Source: Gemmatimonadota bacterium (GTDB lineage Bacteria > Gemmatimonadota > Gemmatimonadetes > Longimicrobiales > Gaopeijiaceae). Taken from it: a stretch of DNA of 64,000 nucleotides. The notes beneath the pieces are model-generated. The model worked only from the letters and a program-made list of their open reading frames with translations, was not told the DNA's origin and did no database searches. How positions within the stretch are numbered: the stretch's first letter is position 1; each line of letters opens with the position of its first letter. The stretch spans positions 1 through 64,000 of the forward strand of contig JBDHCV010000002.1 in assembly GCA_039591855.1 (NCBI GenBank), written 5' to 3'. A program made the translations under genes and the position numbers. Below, one piece after another: positions 14,983 to 34,948 of this stretch.

Positions 14983-15351
14983 TTATCTACGACCCATCAA
15001 TTTCACCACGGCCGGGATCGAGAATAGCCCCAGCAAGGCGGCCGTGCCCCAACCCAATCCACCCCACCGGACCGACGGAATCGCAACGGCGCTCAGGACT
15101 ACGGCGAGGGTGCACTTCGCAACCAACCACGGGGATCGCCGACTGCCGCTGGCGATGAAGGCGATCGCCGCGAACCCAAACCCAGCCGCAGACACGACGG
15201 CCCTCATAGAGTTCCCGCGGTCACTCAGAGACTCCATGTCGAAGAACACGGGGATGAGAGCGTTAGCCGCCAACCCGATCACGATCGCCGTCATCGCCGA
15301 CGATATCTCTGGCACATCCGCCCCGCGCGAAGTCTCCGGCCCGTGGCTCAT
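14983..15351 (-). CDS. Small integral membrane protein, putative immunity protein for the glycine-zipper RHS-CT toxin
   Basis: 122 aa with 3-4 predicted TM helices. Start overlaps the stop of the upstream cassette by 4 nt (coupled). Confidence 0.4.
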   Translation of the reverse strand: MSHGPETSRGADVPEISSAMTAIVIGLAANALIPVFFDMESLSDRGNSMRAVVSAAGFGFAAIAFIASGSRRSPWLVAKCTLAVVLSAVAIPSVRWGGLGWGTAALLGLFSIPAVVKLMGRR

Positions 15352-16001
15352 CGGTTGACCGCGCCCTGAACCAGTCCGGCGACGAATCCCGCGAGCTCGC
15401 TCCGGCGATTCTCGAACACCTCCATCACCACCCCTCGGAATCGGTCCAGTTCAGCTCTCGGCACGCCTTGCGCCGCGTGGTGAGCCACGAACTCGTCGAG
15501 GTACCCAGGGAACGACTCCAGGGCCTCCCCGGCCACCCCTTCTAGGAGCTGGCCGCCGGCTTCGCCGAGGAATCCAAATACAGCGCCCTGAGCGATGTCA
15601 CCGCCGGACCCAAAGCTGCGCTGATCACCACCTCCCAGGAGCCCCCCGAGTCCTCCGATCGCAGCTTGCCCCATGAGCATCGCCGACTTCCCGACTTTCA
15701 GGGCCGCGAATTGCCCGGAGAGGGCTCCAGTCGCGCCTGCCGTAACAAGTGCATTGCCATTGAACGACCTACTGGCGGCCTGGGACAGGCCCTCGGTAAC
15801 AACCCCGACCACGCCACCGATCACCGCTGGGCACCACGGACACAGCCCAAACGGATCCGAGAAGTTGATCGGATCCCCGCCGGCGTACCCGTAGAGGTTG
15901 AGCCCGCCGGCGATCCCAATGGGATCTTGTTGGGTGAACTGCCCACTCGCCATCCCCCCCGCCGGTGCCGATTCCGGGATCCCCGGGGCCAGCCTCTGCA
16001 T
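15348..16001 (-). CDS. Orphan RHS C-terminal cassette: RHS core end (DPxGL) followed by a glycine-zipper, membrane-active putative toxin domain
   Basis: SGQFTQQDPIGIAGGLNLYGYAGGDPINFSDPFGLC is the RHS core end. The CT is rich in GxxxG repeats (VIGGVVGVV, AIGGLGGLLGGG), typical of pore-forming or ionophore toxin domains. Only about 17 aa precede the core motif, so this is an orphan module. Confidence 0.6.
   Translation of the reverse strand: MQRLAPGIPESAPAGGMASGQFTQQDPIGIAGGLNLYGYAGGDPINFSDPFGLCPWCPAVIGGVVGVVTEGLSQAASRSFNGNALVTAGATGALSGQFAALKVGKSAMLMGQAAIGGLGGLLGGGDQRSFGSGGDIAQGAVFGFLGEAGGQLLEGVAGEALESFPGYLDEFVAHHAAQGVPRAELDRFRGVVMEVFENRRSELAGFVAGLVQGAVNR
15841..15944. repeat. 104-bp direct repeat copy 2 (RHS core end)
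   Basis: See copy 1 at 14733..14836. Confidence 0.9.
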
Positions 16002-16038
16002 TACCCATGCCCGACCTACTCACAACCTGGAGGTCGGC

Positions 16039-16962
16039 ATGGCACACCACACCATGGGCGCATGGGTCGAATCGCACCTAGAATGGCTGGAGGCGAAGGG
16101 ATATGCGAGGGGCACGATCCAATCGCGGCGGGGATACCTTCGGAAGTTCGTCGCTTGGAGCGCTGGACAGGGCGCGACGCAGCCGCATGACTTCGCGCTC
16201 CCGCTCATCGAGGCCTACCGGGTCCACCTCCACACGCTCCGGCGCCGGGACGGTGCTCCGTTGGGCTGGGGTTCGCGGGCGCAACCGCTCCTGGCGATCC
16301 GGGGGCTCTTCCGCTGGCTGACTCTCACCGGGGAGTTGAGCTCGAACCCGGCGGCGGACGTGGAGTTGCCACGTCGGGGACGCCGCCTGCCGCGTCGGGT
16401 GCTCTCCGCGTCCGAGGTCGAGCGGGTCCTCGCCCTGCCGAACATCCGGACCGGGACGGGCCTACGGGACCGCACGATCCTCGAAGTCCTCTACTGGACG
16501 GGGATCCGCCGGGCCGAATGCGCGAACCTCGACCTCAGGGATCTCGACCTGGGCCGTGGCGTCCTGCTGATCCGAGATGGAAAGGGAGCCCGGGACCGGT
16601 TCGTCCCCCTGGGCCGTCGGGTCACCGTGTGGCTGACTCACTACATACGGCGGGGCCGTACGTCCCTCCTCAAGAGCGGCGACCCCGGCGCGCTCTTCCT
16701 ATCCCGGCTGGGAGGCCAGATCAGTGTGAAGCGGCTGGGGGCCATGGTACACGATGCCCTTTGGGCGGCGGGGCTGGGCGGAGGCGGGGCGTGTCACCGG
16801 TTTCGGCACACGGTGGCCACGCTGATGCTGGAAGGCGGCGCGGACATCCGCGACCTGCAGGAACTGCTCGGCCACGAGCAGCTGAACACCACGGCGCTCT
16901 ACGCGCGGGTGTCGATCCAACGACTGCAGGAGGTGCATCGACGCACGCACCCGGCCTGGTGA
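16039..16962 (+). CDS. Site-specific tyrosine recombinase/integrase (XerC/XerD-like)
   Basis: N-terminal SAM-like core-binding domain, catalytic domain with R...HxxR (HRFRHTVAT) and C-terminal LLGHEQLNTTALYARV carrying the Tyr nucleophile. Start at the ATG of MAHHTMGAW; the track ORF begins earlier at a non-ATG codon. Confidence 0.85.
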   Translation: MAHHTMGAWVESHLEWLEAKGYARGTIQSRRGYLRKFVAWSAGQGATQPHDFALPLIEAYRVHLHTLRRRDGAPLGWGSRAQPLLAIRGLFRWLTLTGELSSNPAADVELPRRGRRLPRRVLSASEVERVLALPNIRTGTGLRDRTILEVLYWTGIRRAECANLDLRDLDLGRGVLLIRDGKGARDRFVPLGRRVTVWLTHYIRRGRTSLLKSGDPGALFLSRLGGQISVKRLGAMVHDALWAAGLGGGGACHRFRHTVATLMLEGGADIRDLQELLGHEQLNTTALYARVSIQRLQEVHRRTHPAW

Positions 16963-17488: not shown

Positions 17489-18877
17489 TCATGACCGCTC
17501 GCCGCGATTGGACCGGAAGAACTCGTGGTAGTGCTCCCGTAGTGCCTCGCGTAGCACGGTCTCGAAGGCGAGCAGCTCGAACCGTTGCTCCTTCCCAAGG
17601 GACTGGAGGAAGGGCGAGCGGTGGAAGCAGCGAAGGAAGATCCGGGGCTGCTCGGACTCCCGCCGAAGGACCAGTCCCGCGCGGAGGTTCACGAGCTCGT
17701 CCGACTCGCACAGCAGATAGATCGGGGTGCCCTCGATGGAGCTGACCTGAGTACCGACGGCCTCCCATGTACCCGGGTCGTCCAGGTCGAGATCGAGACC
17801 AAGAATCGGGACTGAAGTATCGCCCACGTCTGCCTTGAACCGTCGCAGGTGCAGAGTCGCCTCCGGGTCCACTACAACGACGGCCGCCAACTCGGCTCCC
17901 GCCTCCTTCAGCAGGAGTTCGAGAATGGTCTGGGCAAATCGACCGAATCCGGCCAATACGACGATGTCCCGCGCTTCCGTGGCCTCGAAATGAAGAGCGA
18001 GATGGATCTGATAAAGGTACGAAGCCGTCACCTGACGGGTATTGAACCCTTTGGGCACGGTGTGCCCCTTTGCTGCCCGCTCCACCGGGCGGAGCAGGGC
18101 GAGGTCTCCGACGTGGACCGCGATGGGTAGGTCCGGGGCGCCTGACTGGGCCGACCAGGCCAACTCCAGATTCGCCAGGTCGTCGTCCGTGACGACCACG
18201 AGGCCGAGAGCACCCTCGAGATGCAGAGGCGCCAATGCGTCCTCCCCCGCTCCAGACAGTCGGACGGTCTCCACGTCCGTCAGCTCTTCTGACCGATCGA
18301 CCTCGTCGGCCAGGAGGACCGGCACCTCCGGGTCCAACGATCGAATCGCGTTCAGGTAGATCCGTCCGATCGGGCCTCCCCCGACCACCACCATGTGCCC
18401 GCTCGATCGTCTCTTGAACCACTGGGGCCGAACGAGCTTGAGAAACGCCTCGGCGACGGCCGTCGTGGTGAGGGTGGGAGCGAGGAAGTAGGCCAGCCAG
18501 AGCATTCCGCGTCCCGCGGCGGACCCGCCGGTGGGTACCCCCAGGTCCAGCCCTCCGAAGACGAAGAGCCCCCCCGCATAATAGATCCAGGCGATCCACG
18601 GGTCCGAGGCGAGGGCAGGCCGCTCGCTGGTACCGACGCCAGTCGCGAATGCGACACCCGCCAGGACGAATACGGACAGGAAGGCGATCCATCGGAAGGA
18701 GCGCAGTGTCCGGGCGACCCGCTGGAGGGTGAGGCTCACCGTTGCGAAACCGGATTCAAGTGCCGGGAGCCACGCCCGCTGCCTCGCGGACCAGGGCGGT
18801 GACCACGGCTCGCCGGTCCTCGGAAACGGCGGCAATGAACGGTCCCGAGTGGGACACCGGATCCACCGCTCTACCAT
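17489..18877 (-). CDS. Two-TM ion-channel-like membrane protein with a cytoplasmic TrkA-N/RCK (Rossmann) domain and no GYG selectivity filter. The true start is probably downstream of the annotated ATG because the first ~120 nt overlap the IMPase gene.
   Basis: TM1 FRWIAFLSVFVLAGVAFATG, pore-helix-like WIAWIYYAGGLFVFGG, TM2 MLWLAYFLAPTLTTTAVAEAF, then HMVVVGGGPIGRIYLNAI (GxGxxG NAD-binding fold of RCK/TrkA-N). Confidence 0.55.
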   Translation of the reverse strand: MVERWIRCPTRDRSLPPFPRTGEPWSPPWSARQRAWLPALESGFATVSLTLQRVARTLRSFRWIAFLSVFVLAGVAFATGVGTSERPALASDPWIAWIYYAGGLFVFGGLDLGVPTGGSAAGRGMLWLAYFLAPTLTTTAVAEAFLKLVRPQWFKRRSSGHMVVVGGGPIGRIYLNAIRSLDPEVPVLLADEVDRSEELTDVETVRLSGAGEDALAPLHLEGALGLVVVTDDDLANLELAWSAQSGAPDLPIAVHVGDLALLRPVERAAKGHTVPKGFNTRQVTASYLYQIHLALHFEATEARDIVVLAGFGRFAQTILELLLKEAGAELAAVVVVDPEATLHLRRFKADVGDTSVPILGLDLDLDDPGTWEAVGTQVSSIEGTPIYLLCESDELVNLRAGLVLRRESEQPRIFLRCFHRSPFLQSLGKEQRFELLAFETVLREALREHYHEFFRSNRGERS

Positions 18878-19673
18878 CCAGATCGGTCACCATCCCACCC
18901 GCGCCCTTCATGAGCAGGATTCCCGCCGCCAGGTCGTACGGACTGGCGGGCCGCTTGGACCAGAGGTTGACGTAGACAAAGTCCCCACGGGCTGCTTCCA
19001 CCAGGGCCCAGGCAGGGGAGCCTCCCGGGGACCGGACCATCCGGACCGTCTCGGACTCCCAGGCCCGATACAGGCGCCCGACCAGATCCGACCCTCTTCT
19101 GCCCGGGTGGACGTTCACGAGGAGCGGCCCCGTTTCGGCGCCGGGCCCAGGGAGGGTAGCGCCGTAATCCGCCTCCCCGTAGACCGAGAGCTGCAACAAC
19201 CGTGTGGGCCTCCCAGCTGCGGCATAGCCGATCTGGCCGGTGGCCGGGTTGGACACCATTCCGAGTACCGGGACCCCATCTCGGAAGAGGGCGAGGGTGG
19301 TGGAGTACGTTTCGGTCCCGGTGAGAAACGCCCAGGTGCCGTCCACAGGATCCACGGCTAGAGCCATTCCCCGGTCGACCAGAACTCCACCCAGCTCCTC
19401 GCCCACCAGCACGGCATCCGGATCGAAGTCTCCGAGTCTGGAGGTGATCCGCTCCTCCACTCTCGTCTCGAGCTGCGTGACCGGAGATCCGTCGGTCTTA
19501 AGCGACACGTCGGCTTCCCCTCCCCGAGATCCCCGCACGGCTTGCGCTGCCTCGAGAAGGACATGCAGGCCGAACTCGACCCAGGCTGAGCTCACCTCTC
19601 CAGCTCTGGGAGGGGGGGCGTCGCCGGCTCGGAACCGCGCGATCACACTGGACTCGAGGTCGTTCAATGACAT
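18756..19673 (-). CDS. Inositol monophosphatase family protein (IMPase/SuhB/CysQ-like phosphatase)
   Basis: Signature AVDPVDGTWAFLTGTETYSTTLAL (DPxDGT) and C-terminal PYDLAAGILLMKGAGGMVTDLDG (WDxAAG-like). Start at the internal ATG of MSLNDLES, 4 nt after the stop of the upstream gene. Confidence 0.8.
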   Translation of the reverse strand: MSLNDLESSVIARFRAGDAPPPRAGEVSSAWVEFGLHVLLEAAQAVRGSRGGEADVSLKTDGSPVTQLETRVEERITSRLGDFDPDAVLVGEELGGVLVDRGMALAVDPVDGTWAFLTGTETYSTTLALFRDGVPVLGMVSNPATGQIGYAAAGRPTRLLQLSVYGEADYGATLPGPGAETGPLLVNVHPGRRGSDLVGRLYRAWESETVRMVRSPGGSPAWALVEAARGDFVYVNLWSKRPASPYDLAAGILLMKGAGGMVTDLDGRAVDPVSHSGPFIAAVSEDRRAVVTALVREAAGVAPGT

Positions 19674-19677: not shown

Positions 19678-22278
19678 TCATCCGGTTCGCGAGAGCATTT
19701 CTTCGGCCTCCGAGGATTCCACCTGCCCCCGTTCAGCCAGTTCCTGGATAGCACTCCGAATGAACTCCACCTGTCTACCCGGCACCCGGTTCACCACATC
19801 GGCCGTCAACGGCCACCAGCGAATCTCATCGAACTCGCCGCCGGGGTCGAATGCGGGAAGACCGACCCCCGGGTCGAGAAGAAGGAGGTAGGCCTTGCCC
19901 TCGACCCAGGCGTGGTCTGTTTGCCGTCGGTCGTAGGTGAATCCCTCCGAGACGAGCCAGGTCTCGGCATCTCCGACCGTCACCCCGGTCTCGTCCGCCA
20001 GGACACGGGCCACAGCAGCGGACGGCGCCTCTCCCGGCAGCACGAAGCCCTGCGGAAGGCCGAGATCGGAGCTTCCATCGACTCCTCCGAGGACGATCTC
20101 CAGGCTCCCCGAGGCTGACTCTCTTCGGACCACGAGCACCGCGACCGCCGCGTTGGGCCCCCAGAGCCCCAGGAGCCCACGACCCGCGATGCCCGTGCGG
20201 CCATGCGGGTTCAACGGCCGGCCCTCATCGTCCCGGAACCTCGCCTCAATGGCAGCGAGTGCCTCGGCGATCGATTGGTAGTCTTCCGGGTCGGCCCAGC
20301 CCCCTTCGCCTCGACTCCGGTCGCTCGATGTTACCGACGGGTCCACGTGGTAGGGCGGATCATACTCCTCGCAATCCAGCAACCACGGAGCCTGGTCGAT
20401 GGAGATCCTCTGCCGAGGCGGATACGAAGGCGGGCGCTCACCACGGATCTTCAGGTGGAAGTCGTCCTGGACCAGATCGAACACGAGGGCGTTCACCGAA
20501 CTGAGGGCATACAGGAGGGCCGGCACATCACACTCGCCCCTGTCCCGGCGCTTGTCGAAGCTCAGCGTGTGCAGAGCGTATCGAAGTAGCGCGACACGGT
20601 AGGCCAGCCAGTCGTCCCCCTCCTTGAGCAGGAAATACGACTCCCGTATCCGGCGCACGGCATCCAGGACCTTCCGGAAACGGAGATCCCACTTAACAAA
20701 CCGCAACTCGTCCGGCAGATTGGTCGACTCAGGGGGTATCGCGTGGGCCAGCAGGTAATCTTCCAGCTTATTGAGCCGATCCGCGTCCTCGAGCTCGAAC
20801 TCCTTGCTCATGACGAACTTGACGTCACTCTCCATCTTTGCGAAGTCGAGTTCGAGCGGTGCCTGGCCACTGTGTGTCCAATCGATGAACCATATGTTGT
20901 CGCCGTCATCACAGATGATGTTGGCGAAGTTCAGATCTCCGTGGCTCAAGCTAACGGTGCTCTCCAGGCCGTCCTCGTTGGCGGACACGAGCCGCAGGAG
21001 CTTCGCGAGGCGATCCACGTCGAGTCCCTCGGCGGAGTGGCCGGCCTCGGACACATAGCTCAGGATCAGCTCTGCGTTCTGGCGCATCCATCGGACCTGT
21101 TGCTCCGTATGCAGGCCGAAGGCGCGATAAGGCGCGACCCAACTCCGGTCCGCAGTGTTTCCGTATAGCTTTTCGGAGAGGAGTCCCAGGGACCTGTCCA
21201 GCCGGCGCATGAACCGCTCTAGCCCCGCCTCTCCCTCCGCCTCTTCAAAGGTGTCCTGAAGCGTCTGGGGACGGCCCTCCATGGCGGCGAGATCCATCCC
21301 CACCCCGATCGAATCGCCGAGGGCCACAGGGTAGCCGAAGGTCGGTACGTGCTTCCCGAAGAAGTCCTTTACCTGGTGATACCCGTTCAACTCCCGCCGC
21401 ATCTGCTCGAATGCGTCGATCTTCACGACCAGGGGCTCGGTCCGGGCGTTCCCCTTCCAGCCATCCGCCAGGAACAAGAGGCTGCCGCTGAACCCACCGG
21501 CCAGTGGGCGCAGCCGGGCGCGGCTCCAGTGCATGCAGAGAAGCTCGACGATCCTGCGTTCGGAGTCTTGCAGAGCCTCCAGGGCTTCCGGCGGCTCGAT
21601 GGCCACGGGAGCGAACCCAGAGCCGTCGATGCGTTCCGGATCCAGCCCCACGAAACGTGCGGCCTCTTCCAGATCCAGGATCACGTCGATCCCCGATGCG
21701 GGAAGCGTGTGGCGCAACGCCGCGAGATGGGCCTCTTGGGTGGAACTTCCGACCAGATGCGGACAGACCGCCACTCGCTCACAACGCCAGACGTTCCGCA
21801 GGAAGGACGCGAGGCCCAGAACTCTCCTTTCGGTGTGGCAGCCCACGACCAGGAAGGGAATGTCCCGGACGGCGTCGGCGTCGAGACCCATGTCCTGGAG
21901 TGCCCGACCGAGGCCGTCCGCGGGGATCACTCCCGGTGGAGCGGACACGGTGACGGCTGCTTCGGCCGGGTGGGTCAGAGGATCGATGACGGCGGTGGAC
22001 CCCGGTACCGGAGCCTCACCGGGCTTGGCCTCCGGCTTCAGCCCCGGCTCCAACAGGATCAGCGCAGGGTCGCCGGCGCCTCCCACGCTCTCCGCCACCG
22101 CCTCCAGGAAGACGACCAGGGGTCCATCTCCGAACGTCTTCCCTCTCCCGACCAGTCGCTCGATCTCCCGGTCCCCGACGTTGTCACGGGACGTGCGGTG
22201 GGGATGGTCCGGGCTAAGGAAGTCGGGGGCGAGACCGTCCGCGATCACGATCGCGCGCACGGAGTCTTGGTCTTTCAC
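19678..22278 (-). CDS. 866-aa three-domain fusion protein: N-terminal isochorismatase/cysteine-hydrolase-like domain, central aminoglycoside-phosphotransferase (APH/choline-kinase fold) kinase-like domain, C-terminal NUDIX hydrolase domain
   Basis: N-terminal IPFLVVGCHTERRVLG is a candidate Cys nucleophile region. Central GGFSGSLLFLADGW (Gly-rich loop), VSLSHGDLNFANII (HGDxxxxN catalytic loop) and IWFIDWTHSG (IDW) mark the APH fold. C-terminal GFVLPGEAPSAAVARVLADETGV fits the Nudix box Gx5Ex7REUxEExGU. GTG start overlaps the TGA stop of the upstream K+ channel gene (GTGA coupling). Confidence 0.65.
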   Translation of the reverse strand: MKDQDSVRAIVIADGLAPDFLSPDHPHRTSRDNVGDREIERLVGRGKTFGDGPLVVFLEAVAESVGGAGDPALILLEPGLKPEAKPGEAPVPGSTAVIDPLTHPAEAAVTVSAPPGVIPADGLGRALQDMGLDADAVRDIPFLVVGCHTERRVLGLASFLRNVWRCERVAVCPHLVGSSTQEAHLAALRHTLPASGIDVILDLEEAARFVGLDPERIDGSGFAPVAIEPPEALEALQDSERRIVELLCMHWSRARLRPLAGGFSGSLLFLADGWKGNARTEPLVVKIDAFEQMRRELNGYHQVKDFFGKHVPTFGYPVALGDSIGVGMDLAAMEGRPQTLQDTFEEAEGEAGLERFMRRLDRSLGLLSEKLYGNTADRSWVAPYRAFGLHTEQQVRWMRQNAELILSYVSEAGHSAEGLDVDRLAKLLRLVSANEDGLESTVSLSHGDLNFANIICDDGDNIWFIDWTHSGQAPLELDFAKMESDVKFVMSKEFELEDADRLNKLEDYLLAHAIPPESTNLPDELRFVKWDLRFRKVLDAVRRIRESYFLLKEGDDWLAYRVALLRYALHTLSFDKRRDRGECDVPALLYALSSVNALVFDLVQDDFHLKIRGERPPSYPPRQRISIDQAPWLLDCEEYDPPYHVDPSVTSSDRSRGEGGWADPEDYQSIAEALAAIEARFRDDEGRPLNPHGRTGIAGRGLLGLWGPNAAVAVLVVRRESASGSLEIVLGGVDGSSDLGLPQGFVLPGEAPSAAVARVLADETGVTVGDAETWLVSEGFTYDRRQTDHAWVEGKAYLLLLDPGVGLPAFDPGGEFDEIRWWPLTADVVNRVPGRQVEFIRSAIQELAERGQVESSEAEEMLSRTG

Positions 22279-23648
22279 AGCAGCACTCCCTCGAGTAGCA
22301 GGTCCGAACTCAGGTCACTTCGCTCCGAGGAGACCCGCTTGAGCACGTCGCGGAACTCCGGGTACGTATCGCGTATGGCTCCAAAGTCCCGCTCGCTCAG
22401 TGAGAATGTCTCGCTGAAGGTCAGCGCGCGCACGGAACCGGTACGTTTCTCGTTTAGCAACATGGACAGGTCGCCAAAGTAATCTCCCTCTCGGAGTACG
22501 CCGACCCGGTGTTGCTCCGGGGACAGGACCTCCAACTGGCCCTGGGTCAGGAATTGAATCTCCGCCCCGGCCTCGCCAGCGTGGGAGACCCAACTTCCTG
22601 GGACGAAGACCCGCGGCTGCAGGGCCATGAGGAGGACGTCCCGCAACGGCCGGCTGCATTCCCGGAAGAGTGGTACGTGCCGTGTGAGGTCTCCGGCAAG
22701 ATGGGCCAGCACATCGAGACGGATCGAATCGGGGAGGTCCTGGAGGGCCTCTCGGGCTGAGATCCCCCTGTATCGAGCCCAGACGTAGTCGTGGTAGTCA
22801 CGGACCTGCCGGGTAAGCTCCTGAGGCACTTTCCGGTTCTTCAGGTACTGGTTCACCGAGTCGACACGGTTGCGGAATACGGCCCGTGCCGAATCGATGC
22901 TCGAGACCAGCGCAGCAATATTCCCGATGATGTAAGCCCACAGGGATGCCCCCAGGAGCATGACCGCCATCGCGAAGCCGTACTCCAGGTTGTGCCGGGG
23001 GGTGATGTCGCCGTACCCGACGGCGGTCATGGTCACGATCGCCCAGTAAAGTGAGCGAACGTACTGCGTTCCTCGGGTCTCGCCCACCAGTCCTTCGACG
23101 GCGGCCCATGAATCGGGCGGGAATCCGGCGGCATGGTCCATCAAGAACCACGCGCTCGCCGTCCAGTGGAGGAACAGGGTCGCCACGGCAGCGAGCTTGG
23201 CGATCCGAAGAACGCCGAGGTTCGCCCTTCCCTGGGCCTCCCACCTCCGGAAGATCAGGAACATCCGCGCCACCCGGAGGAGTCGGGGAACCCGGGCCCA
23301 GAGGACGATCGACACCCCCCCAACGGAGACGGACGCCCAGGGGAGGAGTAGCAAGTCGAACGGGATCGATCCGAGGAGATCGACACCGAACATGCCGCCC
23401 CCATACCGCCCTCGCACCGACTCGGGTTCGCTGACCTCGACGCCTCCCGTGCGATAACTCGTGCGGAAGTTGAGAGCGATGTCGGCGAGGAAGAAAGCAT
23501 CGATCAGGTAAAGCCCGATCGATGAAAGGAGGATGGGTCGGTGTACGAAGCCCACCTGGTACGGAACCAACAGGCACGAAACGCCGACCAGAACGAGCGC
23601 GACAAGATCCCATCGGGATCGGAACCGCGACCCCTCAGGGATGATCAC
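22275..23648 (-). CDS. Cyclic-nucleotide-gated potassium channel (voltage-gated-like 6TM K+ channel with a C-terminal cNMP-binding domain, MloK1-like)
   Basis: Selectivity filter TMTAVGYGDITP. C-terminal CNB-domain features LREGDYFGDLSMLL ... RTGSVRA (cAMP/cGMP phosphate-binding-cassette-like). Confidence 0.8.
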   Translation of the reverse strand: MIIPEGSRFRSRWDLVALVLVGVSCLLVPYQVGFVHRPILLSSIGLYLIDAFFLADIALNFRTSYRTGGVEVSEPESVRGRYGGGMFGVDLLGSIPFDLLLLPWASVSVGGVSIVLWARVPRLLRVARMFLIFRRWEAQGRANLGVLRIAKLAAVATLFLHWTASAWFLMDHAAGFPPDSWAAVEGLVGETRGTQYVRSLYWAIVTMTAVGYGDITPRHNLEYGFAMAVMLLGASLWAYIIGNIAALVSSIDSARAVFRNRVDSVNQYLKNRKVPQELTRQVRDYHDYVWARYRGISAREALQDLPDSIRLDVLAHLAGDLTRHVPLFRECSRPLRDVLLMALQPRVFVPGSWVSHAGEAGAEIQFLTQGQLEVLSPEQHRVGVLREGDYFGDLSMLLNEKRTGSVRALTFSETFSLSERDFGAIRDTYPEFRDVLKRVSSERSDLSSDLLLEGVLL

Positions 23649-23667: not shown

Positions 23668-24000
23668 TCAGAACCCCTCCAGGGCTTCGGCCTCCGTGCC
23701 GAATACGCTCAAGATCATGCTGAAGCCGGAGATCTCGAACACCTCGTTCACGGTCTCGTTCAGACCGCAAATCCGAAGGTTACCACCGGAGGCCGACATC
23801 TTCTTCGCAGTGCCGAGAAGCACACGGAGTCCTGCGCTGCTGATGTAGTCCAGATCCTGGAAGTTGACGATGATTTTCTTCACGCCCTCAGCCCCCAGCC
23901 GGTCAAGGCTGTCCTGTGCCTCCGGGGCAGTGTTGGTATCGAGGTTCCCCTCGAAGTGGACGACGCTCACGTCGCCCTGATCATTGACCGAGATGTTCAC
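23668..24000 (-). CDS. STAS-domain anti-sigma-factor antagonist (RsbV/SpoIIAA-like)
   Basis: 110 aa. DYISSAGLRVLLG carries the conserved phosphorylatable Ser/Thr region of SpoIIAA-type STAS proteins. Confidence 0.75.
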   Translation of the reverse strand: MNISVNDQGDVSVVHFEGNLDTNTAPEAQDSLDRLGAEGVKKIIVNFQDLDYISSAGLRVLLGTAKKMSASGGNLRICGLNETVNEVFEISGFSMILSVFGTEAEALEGF

Positions 24001-24008: not shown

Positions 24009-25703
24009 CTACTCCTTGTCGCTCTCTGAGAGGTACTTGACGAGCACGACCACGTTTCGGTCGGTACGTCGGGTATAGGACACCTCGTCCATCAGACTTT
24101 CGACGAGGTGGATGCCCAACCCGCCGATTTCACGCTCGTCGACGGGTTGGGCAGTATCCGGGGAAATGCGGCCAAATGGGTTGAACGGTCGACCGTCATC
24201 GGCCATGCGAACCGCGAGTCGGTCCGAAGACAGCTCGACATGGATGTCGATGATACGCTCGAGGTCATCCTCATAGGCATAGGAAATCACGTTGTTCAGA
24301 AGATCGTCGAAGACGAGCTTCAGACTCCTGCGGACCCGGGTCGGTAGCCCATGCAACTCCGCGAATTCGTCGAACGCACGGTTCACGGCGTCGATCTCTT
24401 CGTAGCGGTTCCGAGCTTCGAGGTGGAGTCTGTGGACGTCGGAAACACCGAGGGCTCGTCCCGCGAACTTGACTGCGAGAACCGTGACGTCATCCGCCTG
24501 CTCTGCGTCAGCCTGGAACCGCCACACGTCCTCGGTCGAGGCCCCCACCACCTCTTCCACGGAGGGCGACTCCTGGGCGCTCAACACCTCCACCAAGCGC
24601 GCCTCCTCGTAGAGGGTCCCCGCTGGGTCCATTGCCTCGGTGACCCCATCCGTATACAGAAAGACGAGATCATCAGGCTGCAGAGTCGTGGACTCTTGGC
24701 CATAGACCAGCCCCTCGACGGCCCCGACCACCGGGCCGTGGCGCGCGTCGAGGCGCACGGGATCACCCCCGTCAGGCTTCACGTAGGGCGGGTTGTGCCC
24801 AGCATTCGTGTACACGAGCGCGCCGGAAGTCACATCGAGGATTCCGAGCCACAGGGTCACGAACATGGCGGAGTCGTTATTCCGCGCGATCTCCTCGTTG
24901 ACGTGGGTCATTATGCTCGCGGGCGAGAAGTCGTTCGAGGCGCGGGACTTGATGAGCGTTTTGGTCACGGCCATGAACAGCGCGGCCGGGACACCTTTCC
25001 CCGACACGTCCCCGACGCAGAAGCAGAAGCGATCCTCGTCGATAAGGAAGAAGTCGTAGAAGTCGCCCCCGACCTCACGAGCAGGCTCCAGTGTGGCGAA
25101 GACCGTGAACTCGTTCCTGTGGGGGTACGGGGGGAACTCCAGGGGCAACATGCTCATCTGGATGTCCCGACCGATGTTCAGTTCGCTCTCCATCCGCTCC
25201 TTTGCGGTGGTGGTCCGACGAAGGTCGTCGAACGATGCTTGCAGCTCCCGGTTCTTGACCGTCAGCTCCTGCATCAATGCGTCCCGGCCCTTTTGCTCGA
25301 TGAGTCTTCGGAGGCGACCGATCACCGAGTCCGTGAGCCCATTCTTCGGTATCTGCACGAGATCGACACCGAGACGCAGGCCAGGGATCCCATCGACTTC
25401 GGCGGGCTGAACGGTGTCGAAGAACGCCTCGGCCATTCCGCGGTCGATCTCATCTCGGACACCAACCAGCTCGAGAACGAACTCTGGCGGCTCCCGATCC
25501 GTGCGGATCCCGACCTCGATCCGACCGTCCTCGGAATGGCGGTCGACCAACCGGATAAGCTGTGATGTGGCGGATGCGATCCGACTTGCCAGCATCCCGT
25601 CTCGAGTCAGCTCCTCGAGCGCGAGCCGAACGTTCCTTCGTCGTTCCCGGACTGAACCGGTAGCCCCTACCGACAACGAGCCGAGCCTGATCATCGCTCC
25701 CAC
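24009..25703 (-). CDS. PP2C-type phosphatase (SpoIIE/RsbU-like) fused to a C-terminal RsbW-like HATPase_c anti-sigma kinase domain
   Basis: PP2C motifs VGGDFYDFFLIDEDRFCFCVGDVSGKGVPAALFMAV and YTDGVTEA. C-terminal ATP-lid GGLGIHLVESLMDEVSY. Coiled-coil N-terminal region as in RsbU. Confidence 0.75.
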   Translation of the reverse strand: MGAMIRLGSLSVGATGSVRERRRNVRLALEELTRDGMLASRIASATSQLIRLVDRHSEDGRIEVGIRTDREPPEFVLELVGVRDEIDRGMAEAFFDTVQPAEVDGIPGLRLGVDLVQIPKNGLTDSVIGRLRRLIEQKGRDALMQELTVKNRELQASFDDLRRTTTAKERMESELNIGRDIQMSMLPLEFPPYPHRNEFTVFATLEPAREVGGDFYDFFLIDEDRFCFCVGDVSGKGVPAALFMAVTKTLIKSRASNDFSPASIMTHVNEEIARNNDSAMFVTLWLGILDVTSGALVYTNAGHNPPYVKPDGGDPVRLDARHGPVVGAVEGLVYGQESTTLQPDDLVFLYTDGVTEAMDPAGTLYEEARLVEVLSAQESPSVEEVVGASTEDVWRFQADAEQADDVTVLAVKFAGRALGVSDVHRLHLEARNRYEEIDAVNRAFDEFAELHGLPTRVRRSLKLVFDDLLNNVISYAYEDDLERIIDIHVELSSDRLAVRMADDGRPFNPFGRISPDTAQPVDEREIGGLGIHLVESLMDEVSYTRRTDRNVVVLVKYLSESDKE

Positions 25704-26791
25704 CTGCAGGCAACGACCGCCGCGTCGTCATGGCGCTTGCCGTAGCGCGACACCACACGATCGGCGATCACGGCGGCGCCATGAAAGCGGAGCTGTGGGT
25801 AGTCCTTGAAGGAGGTTCTCTCCGAGATCCCATCGCTGTGGATCAGGAGAACCTCGCCTTCCTGGAGAGTCGCGGTCTCGACGCGCACTTTCTTGAGTCG
25901 GGTCCCGACCGTTCCAGCGGTAGCGGCGATGCGGCGGGACGTGTCGCCCTCGAGGCGAAGAACCGTGTTCCCCACCGCGGCGTAGCGGAAGGCGCCCGAT
26001 CCCAGGTCTATCCAACAGAGCGACACAGCGGCTCCAACAGTCCGAGCAAGCCTCTCATTCACCTGGATCATCAACTGCTCCAGCTGAAGGGTTCCGCGCT
26101 CTCGGATCAGGCGAACCGCCGCCTTGGCCGCGGCATTCGCCTCACGCCCGTGCCCCATCCCATCCACGACCCCGATCAGGACGCCGCCGTCCGCCTCCGT
26201 GATCGAAACGGCGTCGCCGCTGACAAGTTCTCCCCGGCAAGGGCGGTTGACGAAGGCGAGTTCGAGCGTTGCGGCGGTATCACTCTTTCCCGGGAAACGA
26301 GCCTCTCCGCGCGTGGTGCCCCGCTCCGCGAATGCGTCACTGTGAGCCGACGCGACCGCAGCGGACCGATACCGCGACGATGAGTGACGAGAGCCCCTCC
26401 ACTTCCGCACGATCACCTTCGTCCCGACCCCGACTTTGGAGGTCAGATCGAAGTCATCGACCATCCGCCGCACACCGGGAAGACCGAGTCCCAGCGTTCC
26501 ACTGGAACTGAAGTGGTCCTGCAACGCCTCGTCGACGTCCTCGATCCCCGGTCCGCGATCCGTGACCGTGACCTGAAGTCCGGATCGGGATCCCTCCTGG
26601 ACCTCCTCGAGCAGGACGATTCCACTCGTGGCGTATTTGAGTACGTTGGTGGCGAGTTCCGAGACTACGGTCCCAAGGGCCTTGGCCTCGGACTCCTCGA
26701 ACCCTGCGCTCCGTGCGATGGCCACCGCGGAACCCACTGCGTGGGCGACGTCCGCGTCCCGTCGTACCCGCTGTATGGCCCTACGCGTCAT
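25691..26791 (-). CDS. RsbT/RsbW-like HATPase_c Ser kinase domain fused to a C-terminal PP2C (SpoIIE-like) phosphatase domain
   Basis: N-box ELATNVLKYA, G1 VTDRGPGI, G2 GTLGLGLPGV. Then PP2C motifs LIGVVDGMGHGREA and LIHSDGI. Confidence 0.75.
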   Translation of the reverse strand: MTRRAIQRVRRDADVAHAVGSAVAIARSAGFEESEAKALGTVVSELATNVLKYATSGIVLLEEVQEGSRSGLQVTVTDRGPGIEDVDEALQDHFSSSGTLGLGLPGVRRMVDDFDLTSKVGVGTKVIVRKWRGSRHSSSRYRSAAVASAHSDAFAERGTTRGEARFPGKSDTAATLELAFVNRPCRGELVSGDAVSITEADGGVLIGVVDGMGHGREANAAAKAAVRLIRERGTLQLEQLMIQVNERLARTVGAAVSLCWIDLGSGAFRYAAVGNTVLRLEGDTSRRIAATAGTVGTRLKKVRVETATLQEGEVLLIHSDGISERTSFKDYPQLRFHGAAVIADRVVSRYGKRHDDAAVVACRWER

Positions 26792-28177: not shown

Positions 28178-28241
28178 TGAATCCTCTTTGGTTGTTGACC
28201 AGGCCGCCGAAGTACATTCTGGTCAGCTCAATGCGTCGTGT

Positions 28242-30537: not shown

Positions 30538-31827
30538 TCAGTCGAGTTCACCAGGGAGCCCCGCTTCGCCCCCCCCACTCCCCTTCGCCAGCCTCGCTAC
30601 GTCGATCCCCGTCGCGTTCTCCACCTGTTCCAACATGGTGATCGCGCTCTTCGAGAGGTTCTTCACGTAGTTTGGGAGCCCCTCCCCGTCGCCGCCGTCG
30701 AGAATGGTAAGCTTGTCCACCCGCAGGTTGTCGGCCATGACCCGAGTGACCTTGTCCAGGAGGCCCGGCAACATCTGGATCAGAAACAGGTCGCTGGTCG
30801 CGCCGCCGGCCACCTGCTTCTGCATCAACTCCACCGCCTCCGACATCGCCCTCCCGTTTTCGAGAATCCGAGAGGCCTTCCCCTCGGCCTCCATGGCGAG
30901 CGCCTTCTGCCGGGCCTGTGCCGGCACGACCGTATCAGCTTCCTCGCGATGGGCGCTGACCTCGACTCTCTTGGCCTCCAACTCGATCTCGCGCTCAGCT
31001 CGGGCGATCTCACCTGAGATAGCGGCCCGCCCCTCCGCCTCGTTCGCCTTCGCCGCGAGGTCCGCACGTTCTACAGCGAGTTCGTTCTCCCGGAGGATCA
31101 CCACCCTCTCCGAGGCGATCTCGGCCTCTCGGCCGATGCGGGTCTGCTCGGCCGCAACCTGGCGGGCCTCAGCCTCAGCCTCTGCCTCGGCAATACGGGC
31201 GTCCCGGCTCACCTCCGCAGTCCGCTTGCGGCCGATGGCATCCAGATATCCCTGGTCATCGGTGATGCTCTGGATCTGGAGGAAGTCCAGGACAATGCCG
31301 AGGCGGTTCAGGTCCTCGCGAGCACGCTCCACGACCTTCCCTGCGATTTCCAGGCGCTGGGCATTGGCCTCCTCCGGACTTACCGACGCGACGATGCCGC
31401 GAAGCGAACCCTCCAGCACCTGCCGCGCGGTCTTGTCCACGGCCTCCGTGCCCTTGCCAAGGAAGCGCTCCACAGCACTCTCAAGCCCCTCTTCGGGCCG
31501 CCCCGCCAGCTTCACGTTGGCCCGGCCCTCTATGTTCACGGGAATCATCCCGGCACAGAGAACCTTCGAGAGGTGAATGTCGACCGTGCGGGTCGTAAGG
31601 GGCAATCTCATCACCGACTCCACGAACGGTCGCTTGAAGCCCCGACCGCCCCGGATCACCCGGTACCCGATCGAGGTGCCGTCAGCGAGCTTGCGGGACC
31701 GCCCCGCCAGAATCACGACCTCGTTGGGCTGGCAAATCACCATGTTCGACTTGATGAACACGATGAGGAGGAACACGGCGAGTATCCCAACCCCGAGGGA
31801 AATCCCGATCAGTTGTGCTGAGTCCAT
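30538..31827 (-). CDS. SPFH/Band-7 family protein, flotillin-like (YqiK/FloA-like)
   Basis: N-terminal TM ISLGVGILAVFLLIVFI, SPFH domain, then long Ala/Glu-rich coiled coil (EAEAEAEARQVAAEQTRIGREAEIASE...), characteristic of bacterial flotillins. Confidence 0.75.
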   Translation of the reverse strand: MDSAQLIGISLGVGILAVFLLIVFIKSNMVICQPNEVVILAGRSRKLADGTSIGYRVIRGGRGFKRPFVESVMRLPLTTRTVDIHLSKVLCAGMIPVNIEGRANVKLAGRPEEGLESAVERFLGKGTEAVDKTARQVLEGSLRGIVASVSPEEANAQRLEIAGKVVERAREDLNRLGIVLDFLQIQSITDDQGYLDAIGRKRTAEVSRDARIAEAEAEAEARQVAAEQTRIGREAEIASERVVILRENELAVERADLAAKANEAEGRAAISGEIARAEREIELEAKRVEVSAHREEADTVVPAQARQKALAMEAEGKASRILENGRAMSEAVELMQKQVAGGATSDLFLIQMLPGLLDKVTRVMADNLRVDKLTILDGGDGEGLPNYVKNLSKSAITMLEQVENATGIDVARLAKGSGGGEAGLPGELD

Positions 31828-31857
31828 TGTCCGTCCTCTCCGATCTCGGAGCTCGGT

Positions 31858-33297
31858 CTACACGTTGAAATAGAGCGCAAACTCGGCAGGGTGCGGACGA
31901 AGCCGCACGTATTCGAGTTCGTCTGTACGCTTGGTCTGGATCCAGGTATCGATCACGTCCCTGGTAAAGACGTCTCCCCGCAGCAGGAACTCGTGGTCCC
32001 GCTCCAAGGCGTCCAGTGCCTCGCCAAGGCTCGCGGGGGTCCGTCCGATGGCCTTGCCACGCTCTGTCTCCGCCAGCGCATATAGATCCTCGTCCACCGG
32101 GTCCGGTGGCTCGATATCGCTGAGCACGCCATCCATTCCCGCCATGAGCAGGGCGGCGAATCCCAGGTATGGATTGCAGGAGGGGTCGGGGGTACGGAAC
32201 TCGATGCGCTTCGCCTTGGGACTGGACCCCCCGACCGGAACTCGTACACAGGCGCTTCGGTTGCGGCCCGAGAAGATCAGGTTCATCGGAGCCTCATACC
32301 CGGGCACCAGACGCCGGTAGGAGTTGGTGGTCGGCGAGCAGATGGCACAGAGCGCCGGCGCGTGCTTCAGGAGTCCGCCGATGAACTGTAGGGCGAACGG
32401 ACTCAGGTCAGCGTATCCGCCCTCCTTGTAGAACAGATTCTGCCCGGCCTTCCAGAGGCTCACGTTCATGTGCATGCCCGAGCCGTTTTCCTGTAGAAGG
32501 GGCTTGGGCATGAAGGTAGCGGTCTTCTTGTAGCGGTCGACGACGTTCTTGACGGTGTACTTGTACTTTATCGCCGCGTCGGCCTGAAGCAGGAGGGTGC
32601 CGAAGCGGAATCCGATCTCACACTGCCCCGCAGCACCCACCTCGTGATGGTGCAGTTCCGGCTCCAGCCCCACCTGCTGCAGCACGTTGGAGATCTTGGA
32701 TCGCAGGTTGTTGTACTGATCGACCGGTGGCGCCGCGAAGTAAGCCTGCTTCCGGCCGGCCTGGTGCCCCAGACTCGGGCCCCCTTCCTGCCCACCTGAG
32801 CTCCAGAACGCAGCGGCGCTGTTCAGGAAATAGTAGCCGTGCTGGGTCGCCTGATCGAAGCGGACCTCATCGAACACGAAGAACTCGATCTCGGGTCCGA
32901 AGAAGACCTGGTCGGCCAGCCCGAGTGACCGGGCGAGTCGTTCAGCTCGCCCCGCGATCCCTCGTGGATCCCTGGAGTAGGGGGTCCGACGGATCGGATC
33001 GGCGATGTCGCAGAAGACGGAGAGCGCCGGATCGTCAAAAAAGGGATCCTTGAATACCGAGGCCGGGTCCGGCATCAGCAACATGTCGCTCTCGCTGATC
33101 TTCTGGAACCCCCGAACGGACGACCCGTCGAAGGCAAATCCGTTTCGGAACGTGTCCTCGTCCACGGCTTCGCTGGGTACGGTCAGGTGCTGAAGCGTGC
33201 CGATGAGATCCACGAACTTCAGGTCGAGAAACCGGATTCCGTCCTCTCGGATCATCTTCATCACGTCGCGCGCCGTGGCGCGCCGGTCCCTAGACAT
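31858..33297 (-). CDS. glnA: Glutamine synthetase type I
   Basis: 479 aa. GS motifs FDGSSVRGF, ATFMPKPLLQENGSGMHMNVSLWK, NSYRRLVPGYEAP, and the adenylylation-loop region. Confidence 0.9.
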   Translation of the reverse strand: MSRDRRATARDVMKMIREDGIRFLDLKFVDLIGTLQHLTVPSEAVDEDTFRNGFAFDGSSVRGFQKISESDMLLMPDPASVFKDPFFDDPALSVFCDIADPIRRTPYSRDPRGIAGRAERLARSLGLADQVFFGPEIEFFVFDEVRFDQATQHGYYFLNSAAAFWSSGGQEGGPSLGHQAGRKQAYFAAPPVDQYNNLRSKISNVLQQVGLEPELHHHEVGAAGQCEIGFRFGTLLLQADAAIKYKYTVKNVVDRYKKTATFMPKPLLQENGSGMHMNVSLWKAGQNLFYKEGGYADLSPFALQFIGGLLKHAPALCAICSPTTNSYRRLVPGYEAPMNLIFSGRNRSACVRVPVGGSSPKAKRIEFRTPDPSCNPYLGFAALLMAGMDGVLSDIEPPDPVDEDLYALAETERGKAIGRTPASLGEALDALERDHEFLLRGDVFTRDVIDTWIQTKRTDELEYVRLRPHPAEFALYFNV

Positions 33298-33309
33298 CAG
33301 CGTCCCCCG

Positions 33310-33645
33310 TCACGACAGAATCCGCGGACCGCGTTCGCCGGTCCAGATCGAGATGACCTCATGCAGCTCCGTTACGAAGATCGATCCCCATCCACCGATC
33401 TCGTGAGCCCCGTCGGAGATGGCCTGGATCGCCCGCTCCAGGTCGGCGTCGGTAACCGCTAGTTCGACCCGCACACGCCGAAACAGGCTCACCTTCTGCT
33501 CCACCCCCCGGTATTTGCGCTGCTCCGTTCGCGGCGCGGTGCCCATTACGGTCGAAGCGGTGAGCTTGGGGAATCCCGCCTCGTGTAGACTCGTCTTCAC
33601 GGACGGAAGTTGTTCCGGCCGGATCACGGCGACGACCAGCTTCAT
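33310..33645 (-). CDS. glnK: Nitrogen regulatory protein P-II (GlnB/GlnK)
   Basis: MKLVVAVIRPEQLPSVKTSLHEAGF and a T-loop region (TEQRKYRGVE, uridylylation Tyr). 112 aa from the internal ATG; the track ORF has a 23-codon upstream extension. Confidence 0.85.
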   Translation of the reverse strand: MKLVVAVIRPEQLPSVKTSLHEAGFPKLTASTVMGTAPRTEQRKYRGVEQKVSLFRRVRVELAVTDADLERAIQAISDGAHEIGGWGSIFVTELHEVISIWTGERGPRILS

Positions 33646-33661
33646 GGCCAGGTCCTCCCGC

Positions 33662-34948
33662 TCAATCAGTAGTGAAGATCTGGAAGCCGCTGTACGACTC
33701 CAGACCGTGCTCATCGATGTCCAGCCCCCTCAGCTCCGTCTCATGGGAAACTCGGAGTCCGACGGAGGCATCGATGGCCTTGAAGACGATCCACATCACG
33801 ATCGCGACGAACGCAAGACAGGCGACTACTCCCAGGGTCTGGATCCCCAACTGGCCGAACCCACCCCCAAAGAAAAGGCCGTCGGAAGGAGAACCGAATG
33901 CAGCCTGACCAAAGAGGCCCACCGCCAGCGTACCCCAGATTCCAACCATCCCGTGTACAGGAACTGCGCCGACCGGGTCGTCGATGCCGAGACGGTCGAG
34001 GAGTTCGATCCCGTACACGATCAGAATCCCGCCTGCAGCTCCGATCCAAATCGCGCTTCCCGGACCTACCGCGGCGCACGGCGCAGTGATCGCCACCAAC
34101 CCGGCCAGGGCCCCGTTGAGGGCGATGGTCAGGTCGGGTCTTCCGTACTTCACCCACGCGAAGACCATGGCCACGATCCCGCCCATGCTCGGGGCGAGTG
34201 TGGTGTTCATGGCGACCCGCGCGACCACGTCGGGTTCAGCCATCCCCAGAGTGGACCCGGCGTTGAACCCGTACCATCCGAACCAAAGGACGAGCACCCC
34301 CAGGGTGGCCAGGGGCATGCTGTGCCCCAGGATCACGTTGGACGAGCCGTCCTCATTGAATCGGCCGATCCGGGGGCCGAGCATCCAGGCCCCGACCAGA
34401 GCGGCCACCCCGCCCACAGCGTGAACAACCGTGGACCCGGCGAAGTCATGGAAGCCCAGCCCGGCCAGCCATCCCCCACCCCAGACCCAGTGCCCCACGA
34501 TCGGGTAAACAAAGGCGGAGATGAGGAATGAGTAGGCCAGATAGGCGGCAAACCTCATGCGCTCCGCAACCGCTCCCGCCACGATGGTTGCCGCGGCTCC
34601 GGCGAACACCGCCTGGAACAGCCAGAAAGCTTCCAGAGGGAGGCCGTCCACGGGTGATTCGGCGCCGATCATGAACCAGCCCCGAGTCCCGAACAGGGCG
34701 CCGTCGCCCCCGTACATGAGAGCGTACCCGAAGATGAAGTAAGCCAAGGCCGCGAAGCAGAAGTCCAAGACGTTCTTGGTCAGGACGTTCGCAGCGTTCT
34801 TCGTGCGCACGAGCCCCGCTTCGAGCATGCCGAACCCCGCCTGCATGAAGAAGACGAGGAACGCCGCCAGCAGAACCCATAGTGTGCTGAGACCGTCGAA
34901 CGCCTGACCGGCCTCCTGAACGGATGCGGCTAGCACCGGAACCTCCAT
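33662..34948 (-). CDS. amtB: Ammonium transporter
   Basis: 428 aa, 11 TM, Amt signatures (FLVFFMQAGFGMLEAGLVRTKNAANVLTKNVLDF; twin-His region). Confidence 0.9.
   Translation of the reverse strand: MEVPVLAASVQEAGQAFDGLSTLWVLLAAFLVFFMQAGFGMLEAGLVRTKNAANVLTKNVLDFCFAALAYFIFGYALMYGGDGALFGTRGWFMIGAESPVDGLPLEAFWLFQAVFAGAAATIVAGAVAERMRFAAYLAYSFLISAFVYPIVGHWVWGGGWLAGLGFHDFAGSTVVHAVGGVAALVGAWMLGPRIGRFNEDGSSNVILGHSMPLATLGVLVLWFGWYGFNAGSTLGMAEPDVVARVAMNTTLAPSMGGIVAMVFAWVKYGRPDLTIALNGALAGLVAITAPCAAVGPGSAIWIGAAGGILIVYGIELLDRLGIDDPVGAVPVHGMVGIWGTLAVGLFGQAAFGSPSDGLFFGGGFGQLGIQTLGVVACLAFVAIVMWIVFKAIDASVGLRVSHETELRGLDIDEHGLESYSGFQIFTTD

Follow-up and report, generated by a model that had tools for sequence, protein, structure and literature searches.

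In NUDT9, the first glutamate of the Nudix box coordinates the catalytic Mg2+, and the E-to-I/F-to-L change lowers kcat to about 1% with an unchanged Km (PMC6461439). NUDT9 carrying RILGEE and the NUDT9-H domain of human TRPM2, which carries RILRQE, are both inactive (PMC6461439), and the NUDT9 E230I/F231L ('RIL') mutant binds ADP-ribose (ADPR) with a Kd of about 16 nM and does not hydrolyse it (PMC7612441). A STAS partner switch can control an enzyme of nucleotide-messenger metabolism, as in Pseudomonas aeruginosa, where HsbA acts on the diguanylate cyclase HsbD (PMC5085249). We describe here a gene located at positions 19678..22278 (-) of a 64,000-nucleotide stretch of Gemmatimonadota DNA (hereafter the window; contig JBDHCV010000002.1, assembly GCA_039591855.1). 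Its product, a protein of three domains that we call TRI, has an isochorismatase-fold domain, a kinase-like domain and a NUDT9-like domain. The initial annotation of the window had proposed that the three domains are active enzymes forming one pathway. We put at roughly 0.4 the probability of a different reading, namely that TRI is one active kinase flanked by two sensor or scaffold domains, regulated by a partner switch and paired with a phosphatase. In the literature on TCAD9, on NUDT9 with partner switching, and on DSP-PTPase with Nudix, NAD kinase or isochorismatase, we found neither the tri-domain family nor its connection with partner switching described.

Domain architecture of TRI

The 866-residue open reading frame (ORF) is present as first described, and all three fold assignments hold. 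In database searches 374 clusters match TRI at E <= 1e-5, and among the 120 matches listed all but a few truncated entries cover about 99% of its length, at 52-70% identity and with the same Pfam content. Because so many clusters match over nearly the full length, TRI is judged to be a genuine gene and not a chance ORF. The stretch also matches two public assemblies, GCA_039587245.1 and GCA_039585795.1.

The middle domain (residues ~253-600; 20479..21522, (-)) had been assigned to the APH fold, rightly so. It matches TCAD9 (PF19974) with 93.4 bits and APH with 30.7 bits, with echoes of the choline-kinase and RIO families, and the motifs of the TCAD9/APH group are intact: the glycine loop (GGFSGS, 261-266), the lysine (K286), the glutamate (E296), HxDxxxxN (HGDLNFAN, 446-453) and Dxx (IDWTH, 465-469). 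GGxSGS, K286, E296, HGDLNxxN and IDW(T/x)H are invariant both in 113 close homologues and in 23 divergent sequences, each representing a cluster at 50% identity and alignable over the kinase domain. Since its catalytic motifs are invariant, the domain is predicted to be catalytically active. The closest structures are those of methylthioribose kinase, maltokinase and a lanthipeptide kinase; the top of the list is held by kinases of 5-substituted ribose and of sugars, with peptide kinases also present, and Hanks kinases score far lower. A small hydroxylated molecule is favoured as the substrate because the structural neighbours are sugar and ribose kinases, and a protein is a possible one because peptide kinases stand in the same list.

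The C-terminal domain (residues 605-866; 19678..20466, (-)) gives a NUDIX match of 38.8 bits (cut-off 21.1), and precomputed annotations of its homologues carry both PF25969 (NUDT9_N, shared by all of them) and PF00293. It had been said to resemble ADP-ribose-type pyrophosphatases and is more specifically of the NUDT9 type, with E-values of 3.5e-12 against human NUDT9 (PDB entry 1q33) and 9e-9 against TRPM2 NUDT9-H. The Nudix fold, the N-terminal cap and the signatures of the NUDT9 subfamily are all present: GRTGxxGRGxLxxWGxN and YDxRQTDHAWxE are near-invariant in the family, and the latter holds the equivalents of NUDT9 D271 and R273. The equivalent of D172, a ribose-5-phosphate contact in NUDT9, is Ala or Val.

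The Nudix box itself (residues 744-766; 19981..20049, (-)), which had been taken for a functional one, is degenerate. It reads GFVLPGE-x7-RVLADETGV, so that REUxEE has its first glutamate replaced by Val and its second by Asp, and a gapless alignment sets the R-V-L-A-D-E of TRI opposite REFGEE in NUDT9 and RILRQE in human TRPM2. At the first position, the 113 close homologues have Val (99), Ile (nine) or, in the rest, Thr, Met or Leu, and never Glu; nor is it Glu in any of the 20 divergent cluster representatives that retain the Nudix domain. The second position is variable, and the third is Glu in 90 of the 113 and Lys in many divergent members. The catalytic box GX5EX7REUXEEXGU with its three glutamates is thus absent from the family, and RVLADETG does not match the consensus. 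G744, E750, R758 and usually E763 are kept across the homologues. As a control, two NUDT9-like proteins that stand alone, encoded on plasmids of Streptomyces and Amycolatopsis, keep RELREE. Because the Mg2+-binding glutamate is lost, as in the NUDT9 'RIL' mutant and in human TRPM2 NUDT9-H, the domain is predicted to be a nucleotide binder and, by analogy with these proteins, most likely binds ADPR or a close relative without hydrolysing it, as a sensor or as a substrate holder. The database labels 'ADP-ribose pyrophosphatase' and 'NUDIX domain-containing protein' are probably wrong as functional names.

The N-terminal domain (residues 1-250, or 1-252 by another delimitation; 21529..22278, (-)) had been called isochorismatase-like, and the fold search, the sole type of search to succeed, does recover the three-layer alpha/beta isochorismatase fold. 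Pfam yields no match at E <= 0.1, PF00857 included, and NCBIfam none; a profile search against PDB sequences finds nothing, nor does hhalign against Mycobacterium tuberculosis PncA (with a manually entered reference sequence). The N-terminal profile retrieves only 164 clusters among 1.84 billion representatives. In the motif register, G146-C-H-T-E-R-R152-V corresponds to G-x-x-T-D-x-C-V, which places an arginine at the position of the nucleophilic cysteine. There is no conserved lysine after the third strand (109-112), and D14, C147 and R152 all vary in divergent members. The catalytic Asp-Lys-Cys triad of the superfamily is thus lacking in this register, and since no nucleophile is conserved, the domain most likely provides a second binding site or a scaffold and is probably a pseudo-enzyme.

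Genomic context, fusions and distribution

We surveyed the neighbourhoods by searching the stop-to-stop ORFs of 62 non-redundant loci with the proteins of the window; 25 loci were large enough for wider counts (n = 25, 'large loci' below). The tightest partner of TRI is the phosphatase of the inositol monophosphatase (IMPase) family that the initial annotation had noticed 4 nt downstream. It lies directly downstream on the same strand in 43 of 50 loci, mostly with gaps of 2-10 nt. In the window, its gene (18756..19673, (-); 305 aa) starts with ATG at 19673, 4 nt past the TRI stop. A match of 94.6 bits to Inositol_P (cut-off 27) and the motifs GEE, DPVDGT and YDLAAG in the translation place it in the IMPase superfamily; it scores below every NCBIfam equivalog cut-off (HisN, 97 against 275; CysQ, 65 against 229).

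The dominant regulatory context is a partner-switching module (STAS/PP2C/HATPase_c_2), which had gone unmentioned before, as had the recurrent AmtB-PII-GlnA neighbours. The window holds a STAS antagonist with a phosphorylatable serine, a GHKL serine kinase and a PP2C phosphatase. The STAS protein (23668..24000, (-); 110 aa, RsbV/SpoIIAA-like, 78 bits) carries this serine in DYISSAGL, which aligns on SpoIIAA S58 and RsbV S56 (with manually entered reference sequences). The adjacent gene (24009..25703, (-)) encodes an HsbR-like fusion of PP2C (SpoIIE, 172.7 bits) and HATPase_c_2 (80.6 bits), the putative phosphatase and kinase for the STAS protein. The 110-aa STAS protein is found in 33 of 45 loci, within 2.2 kb upstream of TRI in 29 of them. 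Among the large loci, PP2C (SpoIIE) occurs in 19 and HATPase_c_2 in 16, and 15 of the 18 that contain STAS have a dedicated HATPase_c_2 (GHKL) kinase. Neither the window cluster nor any annotated homologous locus contains a sigma-factor gene.

Directly upstream of these genes in the window is a set of stressosome-like inputs, all (-): HATPase_c_2-SpoIIE (25691-26791), a short STAS (26781-27269), protoglobin-STAS (27266-28177) and dCache-HAMP-STAS (28242-30101), the whole spanning 25691-30101. RsbR-like sensor-STAS proteins, forming the same stressosome-like block as in the window, occur in eight of the large loci.

Gene fusions tie the RsbW-like kinase to both TRI and the IMPase. One locus (L069, 3214-6258, (+)) has a continuous ORF of 1014 aa (P0280) that joins HATPase_c_2 to the isochorismatase-like, TCAD9 and NUDT9-like domains and is flanked by FHA-PP2C, STAS and IMPase genes; another (L065, 3219-4769, (+)) has an IMPase-HATPase_c_2 fusion of 517 aa, followed by STAS and TRI. 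In a third (L027, 8339-11377, (-)), AmtB, HAMP, PAS, PP2C and HATPase_c_2 form one protein of 1013 aa, which suggests that ammonium sensing feeds the partner switch. A candidate TRI-IMPase fusion (P0275, 1228 aa) was rejected as a frameshift artefact: Nudix and IMPase match only in fragments, with Arg-rich junk between them.

In one Acidobacteriota genome (L001/L011), the place of the IMPase is taken by a paralogue of about 770 aa (L001, 12615-14924, (+)) that combines isochorismatase-like, TCAD9 and DSP-PTPase domains. This paralogue belongs to a much larger family than TRI (1416 database hits, including Enhygromyxa salina). It shares the core of TRI (26% identity over residues 144-576) and likewise lacks the cysteine, although its isochorismatase-like part reaches the Pfam Isochorismatase family at 34.8 bits; its C-terminus is a phosphatase, whereas that of TRI is NUDT9-like. 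The phosphatase domain matches Pfam PTP-NADK, a model for a DSP-PTPase phosphatase joined to NAD+ kinase. The two paralogue loci inspected (L067 and L068) have no genes in common with each other or with the TRI cluster, and so offer no hint of function.

The gene upstream of TRI encodes a six-transmembrane K+ channel (22275..23648, (-); 457 aa) with Ion_trans and Ion_trans_2 matches, a TAVGYGD filter and a C-terminal cNMP_binding domain. The GTG of TRI at 22278, with GGGAG located 7 nt 5' of it, overlaps the channel's TGA as GTGA, as had been reported. However, a second in-frame GTG at codon 7 (giving 860 aa) is an equally plausible start, at which most homologues begin and which one public annotation uses (860 aa), which makes the 4-nt overlap probable rather than certain. 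The linkage with the channel, also noted before, recurs across several phyla: the channel, with its cyclic nucleotide-binding (CNB) domain, lies directly upstream of TRI in 15 of 45 loci and anywhere in the locus in 18 of 45, and it adjoins TRI in Gemmatimonadota, Acidimicrobiia, Planctomycetota, Thermoanaerobaculia and Myxococcota. A view of the channel as unique to the window genome, which rested on four Acidobacteriota-type loci, is refuted by these counts. In the phosphate-binding cassette of the CNB domain (residues ~395-420), FGD...KRTGS stands against FGE...RxA, with the arginine kept and the glutamate replaced by Asp; from its sequence, the ligand could be a cyclic nucleotide. No nucleotide cyclase gene is found in the window cluster. 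A second flanking channel, with an RCK domain, had been suggested on the other side. There, the last gene of the cluster (17489..18739, (-)) encodes a membrane protein of 416 aa with N-terminal hydrophobic segments and a TrkA_N/KTN nucleotide-binding domain, but no recognizable K+ selectivity filter and no sequence relative in the PDB, and it may not be a channel. It is found in eight of the large loci. We regard the K+ channel and the TrkA_N protein as accessory partners.

Upstream of the stressosome-like genes, the window carries a nitrogen-assimilation set (30538..34948, (-)): Band7 (30538-31827), GlnA (31858-33297), P-II (33310-33714) and AmtB (33662-34948). Between Band7 and dCache-HAMP-STAS is an ORF of ~133-154 aa (30114-30578, (-)) with no Pfam family, which is also called in both public assemblies. 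Among the large loci, AmtB occurs in 11, P-II in eight, Band7 in eight and GlnA in six, and amtB-glnK-glnA-band7 near TRI recur in Acidobacteriota, Gemmatimonadota, Gammaproteobacteria, Bacteroidota, Planctomycetota and Myxococcota. In all, the window has 15 same-strand genes from 34948 down to 17489: AmtB, P-II, GlnA, Band7, the unassigned ORF, dCache-HAMP-STAS, protoglobin-STAS, STAS, HATPase_c_2-PP2C, PP2C-HATPase_c_2, STAS, K+ channel, TRI, IMPase and TrkA_N. Upstream of the nitrogen genes is a Hanks-type Ser/Thr protein kinase with PD40 beta-propeller repeats (37360-40146, (-); 928 aa). Some 0.5 kb beyond the other end of the cluster are a tyrosine recombinase (phage-type integrase; 15898-16962, (+)) and then a HepT/MNT toxin-antitoxin pair (12920-13538, (-)), and the GC content of 12-16 kb (0.63-0.64) is lower than that of 0-12 kb; 12920-16962 probably marks the edge of a mobile element, beyond the conserved block.

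The proposed search for the same tri-domain architecture found full-length homologues elsewhere. Scanning one genome per species for 185,579 species yields 60 TRI loci, all in metagenome-assembled genomes (MAGs), spread over roughly ten phyla. Most are Gemmatimonadota, as are, by label, the closest listed relatives of the window; the other labels are Acidobacteriota, Planctomycetota, Gamma- and Alphaproteobacteria, Myxococcota, Acidimicrobiia, Bacteroidota, Desulfobacterota, Verrucomicrobiota and Armatimonadota. Some of these labels may be binning errors. Two of them, Akkermansiaceae (L008) and Hyphomicrobium (L009), are odd given 60-73% identity to the Gemmatimonadota-type protein, the explanation being either that the whole cassette was transferred horizontally or that the binning was wrong.

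Proposed function and rival explanations

From the domain identities, motif states, gene linkage and fusions described above, we infer a ligand, a substrate, a direction of regulation and a coupling to the channel. The NUDT9-like domain would serve the kinase either by sensing a ligand allosterically or by holding the substrate. The kinase would phosphorylate a small hydroxylated molecule, possibly the bound nucleotide, and the co-translated IMPase-family phosphatase would remove the phosphate; the pairing of the kinase with a phosphatase, be it IMPase or the DSP-PTPase of the paralogue, suggests a cycle of phosphorylation and dephosphorylation. PP2C and the RsbW-like GHKL kinase would set the phosphorylation state of the 110-aa STAS protein, which in turn would control TRI. 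The STAS, PP2C and GHKL genes around TRI and the HATPase_c_2-TRI fusion indicate that TRI is the target of this switch. Its input would come from the stressosome-like sensors in the window genome and from an ammonium-transporter-like sensor elsewhere; the recurrent Amt/PII/GlnA neighbours and the Amt-fused PP2C-kinase suggest that nitrogen status is one input. In about one-third of the genomes, the neighbouring ligand-gated K+ channel(s) are probably what the output affects.

A more specific version is conceivable, which we rate as unlikely in its full detail. TRI would be a receptor-kinase for an NAD-derived nucleotide: the Nudix domain would capture ADPR or a relative and then either activate the kinase or hand the terminal ribose to the methylthioribose-kinase-like site, making a phospho-ADPR messenger that the IMPase erases. 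The STAS switch, reporting ammonium or stress, would gate this cycle, and in many genomes the cycle would set the opening of neighbouring CNB/KTN-regulated K+ channels, the whole being a housekeeping second-messenger circuit based on ADPR that connects nitrogen status with K+ flux, outside phage defence.

If all three domains were active, as a nicotinamidase-like amidase, a small-molecule kinase and an ADPR/NAD pyrophosphatase, they could with the IMPase make or destroy an NAD-derived metabolite, a product that, in the initial proposal, CNB or RCK domains might sense. The three folds, the NUDT9 type, the tight IMPase linkage and the PTP-NADK match of the paralogue's phosphatase domain all fit such a pathway, but the first Nudix glutamate is never present, the third is Lys in many divergent members, and the same substitution inactivates NUDT9 (PMC7612441, PMC6461439). 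As the isochorismatase-like domain also has no Pfam Isochorismatase match and neither a conserved Cys nor a conserved Lys, we consider three active enzymes quite improbable, and the pathway that had been proposed is not supported. A weaker form of Nudix activity would be slow ADPR hydrolysis: the domain would be a timer that shuts signalling off, a role like that in the choanoflagellate TRPM2 chanzyme. G744, E750, R758 and usually E763 are indeed retained, and slow-turnover NUDT9-H domains exist (PMC11479946). Active chanzymes, however, keep the canonical REFxEE (PMC6461439), whereas in TRI the Mg2+-binding glutamate is always replaced by a hydrophobic or otherwise non-acidic residue and the last one by Lys in many divergent members, which makes a timer rather unlikely.

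We may also wonder whether TRI is itself the protein kinase of the switch, phosphorylating the STAS protein (in place of RsbW or in addition to it) or the K+ channel, with the IMPase and the flanking domains as accessories. In many loci the gene immediately upstream encodes a STAS protein with the conserved serine. Three Acidobacteriota loci (L002-L004) contain STAS but lack an intact HATPase_c_2 gene in the vicinity, the best structural matches include peptide kinases, and TCAD9 was defined in protein-based signalling systems. Yet the dedicated GHKL kinase found in most large STAS-containing loci argues against TRI as the STAS kinase, which would moreover be redundant in the protein fused to HATPase_c_2. 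Small-molecule kinases make up most of the structural class, and the partner that TRI keeps most strictly is a phosphatase of the sugar-phosphate type and not one that acts on proteins; a protein-kinase role is thus unlikely in our view. A conflict or defence effector, for example one that makes a toxic ADPR phosphate, would agree with the naming of TCAD9 for conflict systems (vWA-MoxR-VMAP ternary systems; PMC10910872), with the toxicity of ADPr-1''P (PMC9503650) and with the integrase and HepT/MNT pair 0.5-4.5 kb beyond the cluster. This integrase, however, lies outside the conserved block, and PADLOC gives no hit for TRI, IMPase or STAS. TRI has no relative in 2.9 million viral contigs and no full-length one on plasmids, which carry only stand-alone NUDT9-like genes. 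No vWA, MoxR or VMAP family is found in the Pfam-annotated neighbourhoods of seven loci (no search aimed at these families was made in the other 60 loci), and the context is one of amtB-glnK-glnA and signalling genes. We rejected a defence or mobile-element origin and hold a defence role to be highly improbable.

Several points weigh against the reading that we prefer, a single active kinase under partner-switch control. The function of the family is read from sequence and context, and MAG contigs and their taxonomic labels may be unreliable. About one-quarter of the loci show no partner-switch genes within the available sequence, and the channel is absent from most. The identity of the ligand comes by analogy only, and the loss of the D172 equivalent may mean that it is not ADPR; even with a degenerate Nudix box, some slow hydrolysis is conceivable. 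Finally, the triad of the N-terminal domain was mapped by motif and secondary-structure register, not by structural superposition.

If the single-kinase reading is correct, bacteria would have independently turned an ADPR pyrophosphatase into a ligand sensor by a TRPM2-type Glu-to-hydrophobic change and joined it to a kinase, and STAS partner switches and stressosome-like sensors would have a sigma-independent, enzymatic output. It would also offer a hypothesis connecting NAD-derived nucleotides, nitrogen status (through the AmtB/PII/GlnA neighbours and the Amt-fused PP2C-kinase) and K+ channels, in a family that is rare and seen only in MAGs.

Comparison with known systems

The regulatory part of the locus resembles HsbR-HsbA-HsbD, RsbU/V/W and the RsbR/S/T stressosome: it has a 110-aa STAS protein with the serine of SpoIIAA S58 and RsbV S56, an HsbR-like PP2C and HATPase_c_2 fusion, and RsbR-like sensor-STAS proteins upstream. 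As in the HsbD precedent, an enzyme rather than a sigma factor is the likely target. It differs from HsbA-HsbD and RsbV in that the candidate target is the TRI kinase together with the IMPase, in the place of a diguanylate cyclase or a sigma factor, an interaction suggested by gene order and one fusion. The kinase belongs by its hidden Markov model match and intact motifs with the APH/choline-kinase/methylthioribose-kinase group and TCAD9 (PF19974), from which it is set apart by its two flanking pseudo-enzyme domains and by the lack of vWA-MoxR-VMAP genes in the annotated neighbourhoods. With the isochorismatase/cysteine-hydrolase superfamily (PncA, YcaC, CSHase), the N-terminal domain shares the fold but no detectable sequence similarity, having, in the motif register, Arg or a variable residue at the nucleophile, no conserved Lys and a variable Asp.

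Each domain family of TRI is already known, and the closest analogy is with the inactive NUDT9-H sensor of vertebrate TRPM2. The C-terminal 260 residues of TRI align with human NUDT9 and TRPM2 NUDT9-H, an alignment that takes in the NUDT9_N part as well as the GRTGxxGRG and DxRxTDxAW signatures, and R-V-L-A-D-E copies the R-I-L-R-Q-E pattern of the inactive, ADPR-binding domain of human TRPM2. Like the TRPM2 domain, TRI is coupled, here through its gene, to a cation channel of the voltage-gated-like superfamily. Yet its NUDT9-like domain shares a polypeptide with a kinase and an isochorismatase-fold domain rather than with a channel, and the loss of the glutamate is an independent, bacterial one. 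In a TRPM2-type ADPR-gated chanzyme, NUDT9-H is covalently part of a TRP channel, whereas here the six-transmembrane CNB K+ channel is a separate protein, found in about one-third of the loci. A eukaryotic parallel exists in choanoflagellates, whose TRPM channels carry NUDIX domains and where most craspedid TRPV channels have an isochorismatase-like C-terminal domain (bioRxiv 10.64898/2026.06.15.732245): there too, cation channels are paired with the two domain types that flank the kinase of TRI.

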